From Pseudomonas phage Flu_PA14_4, in the sequence record PQ287279.1: a DNA stretch of 45,199 nt. One strand, 5' to 3'. Shown here piece by piece: positions 32,413 to 33,735 of this stretch. Position 1 is the stretch's first letter. Every line of letters begins with the position of its first letter. The notes beneath the pieces are model-generated. The model was given only the letters and a program-made list of their open reading frames with translations, ran no database searches and was not told the DNA's origin. The position numbers were made by a program, and so were the translations under genes.

Positions 32413-33735
32413 TCACTCGTCGAATTCGACGAACTCGCCCTCGGCATTCAACTGGTACCAGGTGTCCGGCTCTACGCCGTTCTCCCCGACCTTGCTGGCG
32501 CGGATATGGATGAGGCGCCCCTCGTCGTCGCGATGGCAGAGAACGATGGCGCTGCCGGCAGACGCGCGAGCGCGGCCTTCGATACCCAGGGATGCGGCGA
32601 CGGATTCCTTGCCGCTGACCTCGGCTGCCGAGTAGTCGCCGGTGTTCGACGCTGCCGACTGGTAGCCGGTGTTGCTGGCTGCCGACTGGTAGCCGGTGTT
32701 GCTGGCTGCCGAGCGGTTGCCGGTGTTGCTGGCTGCCGAGTAGTCGCCGGTGTTGCTGGCTGCCGAGCGGTTGCCGGTGTTGCTGGCTGCCGAGTAGTCG
32801 CCGGTGTTGCTGGCTGCCGAGCGGTCGCCGGTGTTGCTGGCTGCCGACTGGTAGCCGGTGTTGCTGGCTGCCGACTGGTAGCCGGTGTTGCTGGCTGCCG
32901 AGCGGTTGCCGGTGTTGCTGGCTGCCGAGCGGTTGCCGGTGTTGCTGGCTGCCGACTGGTAGCCGGTGTTGCTGGCTGCCGACTGGTAGCCGGTGTTGCT
33001 GGCTGCCGAGCGGTTGCCGGTGTTGCTGGCTGCCGAGTAGTCGCCGGTGTTGCTGGCTGCCGAGCGGTTGCCGGTGTTGCTGGCTGCCGAGTAGTCGCCG
33101 GTGTTGCTGGCTGCCGAGCGGTCGCCGGTGTTGCTGGCTGCCGACTGGTAGCCGGTGTTGCTGGCTGCCGAGTAGTCGCCGGTGTTGCTGGCTGCCGAGC
33201 GGTTGCCGGTGTTGCTGGCTGCCGAGCGGTTGCCGGTGTTGCTGGCTGCCGACTGGTAGCCGGTGTTGCTGGCTGCCGAGCGGTCGCCGGTGTTGCTGGC
33301 TGCCGACTGGTAGCCGGTGTTGCTGGCTGCCGACTGGTAGCCGGTGTTGCTGGCGGTGTCGCCCACCACCGTCTGCTCAACCGAGCTGTCCAACCGAGCC
33401 ATGATCCAGTCGATTGCTCGCGAGATCATGGTCGGCATGCTGATTTCCGCTTCCACCACCAGGGTGGCGCTGGCGATCTTGCTGTCATCGTCGTGACGGC
33501 TCAGTTGCCCCGAAGCCTTCACGATGGCGAATCGGCTGTCGCCTGGGGCGTAGTAGCCGAAGACATCAAGGGGGTACTCGCAGGAGTGGAAGCCCGAGGC
33601 GCATGCCTCGACTTCGCCATCGTGCTTGTAGGTGCCGCCGATCTCGAACTGGTAGCTGCGACAGGTCAGGTCCTGCTTGAATCCCTTGTAAGCGGTCACG
33701 ACCTCTTCGGACGCAGCCTTTTTCTTGCTCGCCAT
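32413..33735 (-). CDS. Protein with 27 tandem nonapeptide repeats ASNTG-(YQ/DR/NR/DY)-SA between unique N- and C-terminal domains
   Basis: Only this frame has about 127 aa of unique N-terminus and about 70 aa of unique C-terminus. The other two frames are repeat artefacts. Confidence 0.6.
   Translation of the reverse strand: MASKKKAASEEVVTAYKGFKQDLTCRSYQFEIGGTYKHDGEVEACASGFHSCEYPLDVFGYYAPGDSRFAIVKASGQLSRHDDDSKIASATLVVEAEISMPTMISRAIDWIMARLDSSVEQTVVGDTASNTGYQSAASNTGYQSAASNTGDRSAASNTGYQSAASNTGNRSAASNTGNRSAASNTGDYSAASNTGYQSAASNTGDRSAASNTGDYSAASNTGNRSAASNTGDYSAASNTGNRSAASNTGYQSAASNTGYQSAASNTGNRSAASNTGNRSAASNTGYQSAASNTGYQSAASNTGDRSAASNTGDYSAASNTGNRSAASNTGDYSAASNTGNRSAASNTGYQSAASNTGYQSAASNTGDYSAAEVSGKESVAASLGIEGRARASAGSAIVLCHRDDEGRLIHIRASKVGENGVEPDTWYQLNAEGEFVEFDE
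32626..33354. repeat. 27-bp tandem repeat array, 27 copies with 4 sequence variants; in-frame coding repeat
   Basis: GCCAGCAACACCGGC + a variable 6-7 bp block + GCAGCC repeated head-to-tail. A higher-order 7-unit block (DR-DY-NR-DY-NR-YQ-YQ) occurs twice. Confidence 0.9.

Follow-up and report, generated by a model that had tools for sequence, protein, structure and literature searches.

A gene built around 27 nonapeptide units

Sequence record PQ287279.1, from Pseudomonas phage Flu_PA14_4, is a stretch of 45,199 nucleotides that we refer to as the window. On its minus strand, at 32413..33735, lies a gene whose product consists largely of near-identical nine-residue repeats. All coordinates are those of the whole 45-kb window. 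The open reading frame (ORF) list gives a complete coding sequence (CDS) of 440 residues, with an ATG start and with the stop codon included in the coordinates; a GGAG motif resembling a Shine-Dalgarno sequence can be read from the sequence 7 nt upstream of the ATG (33743..33746, minus strand). The order within the ORF is a DUF7666 domain (residues 13–105; 33421..33699, minus strand), for which an ADP-ribosyltransferase (ART)-superfamily fold is predicted, then a nonapeptide array, and then a C-terminal cap. The locus is an unusually long new allele of a known, uncharacterised family, and is not categorically new. What appears to be undescribed is the variability of two residues within otherwise homogenised units, the predicted ART fold of the N-terminal domain and a possible link to the T4 protein RIIB.

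Tandem Repeats Finder reported a single array in the window, at 32623..33354, with a period of 27, 27.1 copies, 91% matches and a score of 1121. On parsing the ORF, this array resolved into 27 in-frame units of 27 bp (32626..33354, minus strand; residues 128–370), preceded by 127 unique N-terminal residues and followed by 70 unique C-terminal residues, in agreement with an earlier interpretation made from the letters alone (hereafter the sequence-only reading). Each unit encodes ASNTGxxSA, where xx denotes two variable residues, and the array is predicted to form a beta-solenoid. The xx order is YQ YQ DR YQ NR NR DY YQ DR DY NR DY NR YQ YQ NR NR YQ YQ DR DY NR DY NR YQ YQ DY, exactly as the sequence-only reading had given it. 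That reading counted four DNA variants of the unit; there are five, the fifth being the final DY unit, which writes Ala-Ser as GCG TCG where the others write GCC AGC. Among units 1–26, all differences are confined to the two xx codons.

The sequence-only reading had also recognised a duplicated super-repeat of seven units (189 bp). The duplication is present, but it is larger than that: the exact duplicate at unit level spans eight units (units 8–15 = 19–26), and it lies within an 11-unit (297-bp) tandem duplication. The two halves of the latter, with boundaries taken from the unit order and coordinates from the unit register, are block A (units 5–15, NR NR DY YQ DR DY NR DY NR YQ YQ; 32950..33246, minus strand) and block B (units 16–26, NR NR YQ YQ DR DY NR DY NR YQ YQ; 32653..32949, minus strand), a tandem copy of A with 10/11 units identical. 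Inside this duplication is an exact direct DNA repeat of 224 nt at an offset of 297 nt, with copy 1 at 32948..33171 (gene nt 565–788) and copy 2 at 32651..32874 (gene nt 862–1085), both on the minus strand.

The reading frame of 32413..33735 is certain, because the differences among units 1–26 fall only at the xx codons, the N-terminus matches Pfam DUF7666, and both unique ends are conserved in every homologue inspected; the sequence-only reading had also based the frame on these ends. Two other long ORFs that cover the array in other frames (32506..33753, plus strand; 32472..33380, minus strand) are by-products of the repeat.

A catalogued family in phages and bacterial genomes

The sequence-only reading viewed the protein as an oddity. 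Instead, it belongs to a catalogued family: its N-terminus matched Pfam DUF7666 (PF24703) with 117.6 bits against a cutoff of 27 (E 3.6e-34; residues 13–105 aligned to profile positions 1–94 of 95), and the whole protein matched PHROG 4433, whose function is not annotated, with an E-value of 9e-187. Homologues at E <= 1e-3 numbered 6,769 among 8,000 candidates. A search of cluster representatives (1.84 billion, clustered at 50% identity) matched 5,054 at E <= 1e-3 and 577 at E <= 1e-30, and nearly all of the best 150 representatives combine the N-terminal domain, a nonapeptide array with Gly every nine residues, and the C-terminal cap.

Scanning one genome per species yielded 160 relatives, of which 80 loci were kept; these come from Pseudomonadota, Bacteroidota, Bacillota, Coriobacteriia, Elusimicrobia and others. 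Complete ORFs among the kept loci reach 30 array units, the median being 11, and homologues range from 0–2 units upwards. Long arrays are also present in finished chromosomes, with ~25 units in Enterobacter adelaidei CP154353.1 (a rung count of 27 includes two degenerate rungs of the cap) and ~30 in Hanamia OZ255711.1, so the 27 units of the window are inside the natural range. Most of the listed homologues are in bacterial genomes, presumably as prophages.

The source of the window is a lambdoid temperate Pseudomonas aeruginosa phage of the YA3/Ab31 type. A comparison of 3.2 kb (31500..34700) showed 97.7% identity between the window and vB_PaeP_YA3. There the same gene, ORF46, has 28 units as against 27, and its flanks show a single residue change. 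Salmonella phage ES18 gp53 has the N-terminal domain, ten SAATNTGxx units and the same C-terminal cap, while the number and order of its units differ from those in the window.

Gain, loss and reshuffling of whole units

A comparison of related phages for array-length variation had been recommended by the sequence-only reading, and such variation is found. The 119 listed P. aeruginosa database homologues have 11–18 units, compared with 27 in the window, and YA3 has 28. Lengths step by nine residues with few off-step exceptions, consistent with the earlier expectation that copy number would change without a change of frame. Ten P. aeruginosa database proteins have flanks identical to those of the window protein, and all eleven arrays differ, with between 14 and 27 units. 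Whole 27-bp units are gained, lost and reshuffled in this array.

A P. aeruginosa prophage contig, GCA_023918105.1, is 99.6–99.9% identical to the window over 7.3 kb. Its allele, with 16 units, is shorter by exactly 297 bp and matches the window gene without a difference over the first 788 nt and over the last 462 nt. The missing 297 bp are the equivalent of block A or block B, their position being ambiguous within the 224-nt repeat. One deletion between the 224-nt repeats turns 27 units into 16, and the reverse takes two steps. An 11-unit (297-bp) tandem duplication is also present in YA3 despite its other unit order, with a longest exact repeat of 350 nt at an offset of 297 nt. During laboratory evolution of Serratia symbiotica CWBI-2.3, an in-frame deletion of 54 bp (2 × 27) occurred in the 1,413-nt gene ydhT_1 (PMC12505973, Table 2). 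Since automatic annotation labels these proteins YdhT, ydhT_1 is probably a DUF7666 family member, in which case the deletion would directly document the loss of units.

Variation within the units is concentrated at the xx pair. In 101 units from six Pseudomonas phage arrays, only nt 16, 19, 20 and 21 vary, apart from a linked synonymous Ala-Ser alternative (nt 3–6) and a few singletons. Across 150 listed proteins, the entropy at the two xx positions is 3.2 and 3.5 bits, as against 0 at the Gly and 1.2–2.8 elsewhere. We then took 410 units belonging to 28 arrays, each from a different species, and compared every unit with the consensus of its own array. The two xx codons differ non-synonymously in 49% and 57% of units and the other seven in <=8%, while synonymous differences stay at <=2% for every codon. 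Homogenisation should erase variation at all sites alike, whereas xx diversity exceeds synonymous diversity more than tenfold, so selection, or a targeted process, keeps xx heterogeneous. From these patterns we infer that xx diversity is probably maintained by selection.

The near-identity of the units had been taken by the sequence-only reading as a sign of recent expansion. The nonapeptide array is also found in Salmonella, Acinetobacter, Bacteroides and many other lineages, and because the same array recurs across such distances, near-identity is no proof of recent origin. The array of each lineage is homogenised separately by concerted evolution, with only the xx codons staying diverse. 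We considered a diversity-generating retroelement as the source of the variation and set it aside, as the alternatives at the variable positions (G/A/T at nt 16, C/T at 19, A/G at 20, C/G at 21) are unlike adenine-specific mutagenesis; a reverse transcriptase or template repeat was not searched for.

The TALE (transcription activator-like effector) repeats of Xanthomonas have near-identical DNA units with repeat-variable di-residues, and their alleles arise by gain, loss and reshuffling of units. The window gene resembles them in its near-identical tandem units, in variation at two adjacent codons and in unit shuffling, which is an analogy only. TALE units are helical, 33–35 residues long, correspond to one DNA base each and belong to a secreted effector, whereas the units here have nine residues, are predicted to be beta-structured and belong to a cytoplasmic phage product. 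TALEs bind DNA; the window protein is likened to them by genetic architecture alone.

Length of the array

The length of the array could be an artefact of assembly, in which case the true array would have about 16 units, and 27 units with a 297-bp near-duplication would have come from short-read mis-assembly. Such arrays do disturb assemblies: 25 of the 80 genome loci run off a contig end within the array, and several phage records start or stop within it. None of the 119 best-scoring P. aeruginosa database proteins has more than 18 units, the near-identical prophage contig has 16, and YA3, which with its 28 units is alone among close relatives in having a long array, carries a 297-bp duplication as well. 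The k-mer content of the two alleles argues the other way. The 27-unit gene contains all k-mers of the 16-unit allele up to 225 nt, and in addition 50-mers that the 16-unit allele lacks. A short-read collapse from 27 to 16 units is thus possible, whereas inventing 27 from 16 is impossible for k >= 50. This asymmetry argues for a real array in the window and for underestimated copy numbers in some database entries, for which the loci and phage records broken within the array are further support. In addition, the 11-unit blocks A and B differ in one unit, and comparably long arrays exist in the finished chromosomes of Enterobacter adelaidei (CP154353.1) and Hanamia (OZ255711.1). On balance, we judge an artefact to be very improbable.

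Because the arrays break or collapse short-read assemblies, copy numbers in databases are unreliable. Records broken within the array are MZ089728 (PSA04), PP067092 (PAShipCat1) and MK511039-MK511051, and array fragments in broken phage records are annotated as 'flagellar hook-length control protein'.

Predicted fold of the N-terminal domain and its resemblance to RIIB

We ran AlphaFold2 (AF2) with an alignment of 124 sequences. The predicted local distance difference test score (pLDDT) was ~98 for residues 11–115 and ~95 for residues 370–440. In the resulting model, the N-terminal domain of ~100 residues shows an ART-superfamily fold with a split beta-sheet, which we liken to SCOP d.166.1 (BC2332-like, PARP, Tpt1/KptA, Arr, the diphtheria-toxin group and AcrIF11). 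Profile searches of PDB and Pfam with this domain found no relative and no sequence-level link to ARTs. Its most conserved residues are K17, G18, F19, C25, G33, C45, G48, H50, P55, Y62 and K86. The canonical ART triad (H-Y-E or R-S-E) is absent: DUF7666 has K17 and H50 at the places of H/R and Y/S in canonical enzymes, and it has extra invariant cysteines. Diphtheria toxin has H21, Y54 and Y65, and the spacing of K17, H50 and Y61/62 is suggestive of a resemblance to these, a lead and not a test.

A Foldseek search against predicted viral structures (BFVD) returned six RIIB models, with E-values of 4e-4 to 3e-3 and TM (template modelling) scores of 0.53–0.60. The same search returned DUF7666 proteins of phages and giant viruses, together with many giant-virus ankyrin-repeat proteins. 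The giant-virus proteins with a DUF7666-fold domain include some whose annotation is ankyrin-repeat or DUF4116, and a Rheinheimera phage protein with such a domain is labelled 'pentapeptide'. Taken together, the Foldseek matches show the DUF7666-fold domain repeatedly joined to differing repeat scaffolds.

The resemblance to RIIB extends to sequence. T4 RIIB (NC_000866) at residues ~208–300 reads AWK..CSRGLHVC..SRVVKV..DAKMR, and the window protein reads AYKGF..CASGFHSC..SRFAIV..DSKIA, which gives a common signature, K..CxxG[FL]H..SR..V..D-x-K, for DUF7666 and the RIIB C-terminal domain. In an alignment of 14 RIIB C-termini taken from phage records, including four short database fragments, the K, C, G and H of this signature are invariant or nearly so. 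An hhalign comparison of the DUF7666 and RIIB alignments matched the conserved motifs to each other, with P = 0.0068 over 87 columns, while the hhalign probability was only 5.6%. Remote homology between the DUF7666 domain and the RIIB C-terminal domain is therefore probable, not established. RIIB is among the oldest unsolved phage proteins, and a structural link of this family to its conserved domain is probable.

The two proteins differ in architecture. The RIIB domain is C-terminal and follows a region that contains a helix-turn-helix (HTH), whereas the window protein carries its DUF7666 domain at the N-terminus and showed no HTH; RIIB has no nonapeptide array. RIIB is a phage early protein, as DUF7666 proteins are predicted to be, and record annotations describe RIIB as protecting against prophage-induced exclusion. 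In the Pfam copy used, the RIIB C-terminal region has no model; database proteins are tagged PF26926.

Predicted structure of the array and the C-terminal cap

For the array, the AF2 model has one strand of 4–6 residues per nonapeptide, with a confidence of ~80 at both ends and <50 in mid-array, the latter because few homologues have residues there. The strands are formed by (S)AASN(T), and the arcs by the invariant Gly and the xx pair. Fold matches for the array were curli CsgA (12.7), the trimeric-autotransporter head BpaC (11.4), the antifreeze protein MpAFP (10.4), the RTX protein CyaA (9.9) and the YadA head (8.7). The beta-solenoid that the sequence-only reading had raised as a possibility is in keeping with one predicted strand per nine residues, and we infer from the model a thin solenoid of two sheets, in which each turn would comprise two rungs and the xx pairs would form ladders on both edges.

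The C-terminal cap (residues 371–440 plus stop; 32413..32625, minus strand) comprises three degenerate nonapeptide rungs followed by a conserved beta-hairpin/beta unit (VGENG..PDTWY.L...GEFVE). Its high pLDDT (~95) and its conservation in homologue alignments support it, and profile searches of Pfam and PDB found no relative. The same cap is present in E. coli K-12 YdhT (b1669), which has ~14 rungs with Gly every nine residues and is 26% identical over 154 residues (E 6e-11). YdhT differs in its unrelated N-terminal region and in its degenerate, non-homogenised rungs (xRIASxGxx), which have Ile/Val in the strands. The NCBIfam model for the YdhT equivalog (NF007410 / PRK09946) matched the window protein at E 2.6e-22 with 79.7 bits, well below its 300-bit cutoff, and aligned with the rungs and cap only. 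The solenoid-plus-cap module thus also occurs in a chromosomal gene, part of the ydhYVWXUT operon.

The whole protein matched no Pfam repeat family for the array at E <= 1, and the earlier view that the unit is not of the RTX, pentapeptide or ice-nucleation type holds. RTX repeats follow GGxGxDxUx, with an invariant Asp and several Gly; ASNTGxxSA has one Gly, and Asp in 9/27 units at a variable position. The calcium motif GGxGxD is lacking, and Pfam RTX (HemolysinCabind) gave no match at E <= 1. Pentapeptide repeats have a period of 5 and ice-nucleation repeats of 8/16/48, whereas the period here is strictly nine residues. YadA_head and Hep_Hag did not match the whole protein at E <= 1, and matched 5/46 C-terminal fragments weakly (best E 0.005). 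Unlike the trimeric autotransporter YadA, the window protein has no signal peptide or membrane anchor, and its C-terminus is a soluble cap. The strands of RTX, YadA and CsgA contain large hydrophobic residues, whereas those of the window protein contain small, conserved Ala and Ser.

Searches of PDB sequences with the whole protein gave one clear match, to the Spt5 C-terminal repeat (CTR), with the rest at E 0.02 or weaker and including collagens; we regard all of these as compositional. The clear one aligned array residues 186–338 with the C-terminal nonapeptide repeat of fission-yeast Spt5 (TPAWNSGSK) at E 5.5e-10, and is judged not homologous.

No hydrophobic segment is present, the highest Kyte-Doolittle value in a 19-residue window being 1.18, and the net charge of the array is +2 in the window and −0.06 per unit as the family mean. 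The protein is therefore expected to be cytoplasmic and not a polyanionic DNA mimic. DNA mimicry in the manner of pentapeptide-repeat proteins or Ocr was ruled out by the electrically neutral array. We also rejected a surface adhesin or tail fibre: the weak PHROG matches to tail fibres are of low complexity, the protein lacks both a signal peptide and an anchor, and the gene is in the early region.

Position in the early region

The gene lies in the early-left region, downstream of cI, in line with the sequence-only reading's placement of it among early accessory genes. Upstream of it on the minus strand are a cI-type repressor gene (HTH_3 + Peptidase_S24 in Pfam, and so annotated in YA3; 35128..35856), a 199-residue ORF downstream of cI (34084..34683), and a 60-residue ORF between the latter and the DUF7666 gene (33811..33993). 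Downstream are genes for DUF551 and then DUF7448 (Pfam). The YA3 paper assigned this stretch to the left early/delayed-early region from promoter predictions only, and its authors predicted PL between the cI-adjacent ORF and orf48 (PMC7326022).

The position is similar in other phages. ES18 gp53 is flanked by the N-like gene 24 on one side and a terminator annotated as putative on the other; PL and nutL are annotated upstream of it. The homologues of phi2, BR228a, TC7 and Acinetobacter phage fEg-Aba01 lie downstream of the annotated repressor gene, and that of P7869 follows a homologue of the window's 199-residue ORF. The immediate neighbours vary from phage to phage in this set, so the DUF7666 gene behaves like an accessory module of the early region. 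In Ab31 (HG798806), the gene is absent from the syntenic position between ORF48 and ORF49, where a 50-residue ORF is found instead; the flanking 60-residue and DUF551 genes are kept, which looks like cassette-type presence/absence.

Frameshifted alleles occur in several independent phages. In fEg-Aba01, the array and cap are in the -1 frame relative to the N-terminal domain, and in the CDS as annotated the array is translated into TTQQALLLA repeats. Vibrio phage 1.021.A carries the gene as two separate CDS, and in Salmonella phage Emek (JQ806763) it is annotated 'with frameshift'.

RNA structures and terminators flanking the gene gave nothing notable (z-scores 0.30 and -1.37) except one upstream GC-rich stem-loop of 7 bp at 33786..33804 on the minus strand (GCCCTGC-CGGTA-GCAGGGC in mRNA sense), between the 60-residue ORF and the DUF7666 gene. 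It lacks a U-tract, and its fold is not significant against shuffles (z = -1.37).

Possible functions

We lean, with some reservation, towards a soluble cytoplasmic early effector in conflict with the host or a rival phage, for which the solenoid would provide a variable binding surface. This proposal draws on the early slot by the immunity region, the effector-type fold and the RIIB resemblance, as well as on the fusion of the domain to varied repeat scaffolds and on selection for diversity on exposed arcs. In such an effector, the nonapeptide rungs would stack into a thin two-sheet rod with SAASNT strands and arcs of Gly and xx. The xx ladders along the rod edges would be the binding surface, whose specificity could be retuned by unit shuffling. 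The rod would then position or target the ART-like (RIIB-like) domain onto a host or rival-phage component early in infection, and the protein might act in counter-defence or host takeover. Concerted evolution that leaves diversity at exactly two residues points to a variable interaction surface, and an ART-fold domain with unusual conserved residues suggests NAD- or nucleotide-related chemistry, or mimicry of such.

A number of observations count against this proposal. No acidic residue of the N-terminal domain is invariant (58% of sequences have E73, 73–75% have D84 and 80–85% have E97), and the window protein has K73 at the first of these positions; the domain, in its predicted ART fold, may be non-catalytic, and C25/C45/H50/C52 may be an alternative metal site. 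The xx order has no two-unit periodicity, which would be expected of homogeneous solenoid edges, only a weak excess of identical neighbours. Arrays that differ wildly behind identical flanks fit loose constraint as well as an arms race. The early-operon assignment is a prediction from synteny and the promoter predictions of the YA3 paper, and the frameshifted alleles suggest that the gene is dispensable. PADLOC defence models matched neither this gene nor its four neighbours, and searchable papers do not mention DUF7666, the peptide motifs or a function of ES18 gp53.

The main rival is that the array is structural only, a passive spacer or oligomerisation rod in which xx diversity serves charge balance, solubility or the avoidance of amyloid-like self-association, and unit order carries no recognition information. 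Near-random unit order fits this explanation equally well: order is almost unconstrained, given that eleven alleles with identical flanks have eleven arrays, and it lacks periodicity beyond the slight clustering of identical neighbours. The arrays are also near neutral, with D offset by R; the first xx residue is mostly D, N, Y or H after the invariant Gly, which is typical turn chemistry; and curli and antifreeze solenoids, whose faces are flat and repetitive, are among the closest folds. A pure spacer would, however, have no need of 49–57% heterogeneity, and the more than tenfold excess over synonymous change implies selection specific to xx. Restricted sets of residues (D/N/Y + R/Q/Y/W) recur in distant lineages with different DNA, and a range from 0–2 to 30 units across homologues is odd for a fixed-length ruler. 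We consider a purely structural array rather unlikely, yet likelier than either the assembly artefact or a role in exclusion. In the latter, the protein would be made in the lysogen and block superinfecting phages, with the array tracking phage targets. Exclusion genes such as rexAB, sieB and bstA adjoin the repressor gene in other lambdoid phages, and the DUF7666 gene, located downstream of cI on the same strand, occupies a hypervariable accessory slot. The great majority of listed homologues are in bacterial genomes, presumably as prophages, and extreme allelic diversity would suit an arms race. Against this, the predicted position of PL in YA3 implies that the gene is repressed in lysogens, the ES18 homologue is downstream of the annotated PL/nutL and an N-like gene, no PADLOC model was matched, and the structural relative RIIB is annotated as a phage-side anti-exclusion factor. 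We hold a defence or exclusion protein to be the most doubtful of these explanations.

Returning to the early effector, a more specific and speculative form of it, which we think unlikely as it stands, is a programmable recognition rod. The xx pairs (mainly DY, YQ and NR in P. aeruginosa) would then constitute a di-residue alphabet displayed on the solenoid edges, unit order would determine binding to a periodic or extended target, unequal recombination would rewrite this specificity as in TALE effectors, and the rod would direct the RIIB-like ART-fold domain at rival prophages or at the defences of the host. Should this hold, it would open a first biochemical way into the conserved RIIB domain of T4. 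The family is present in temperate phages and in bacterial genomes (apparently as prophages) of many phyla, in an early accessory slot beside the immunity region, and its array could be used as a fast-evolving marker of prophage lineages.

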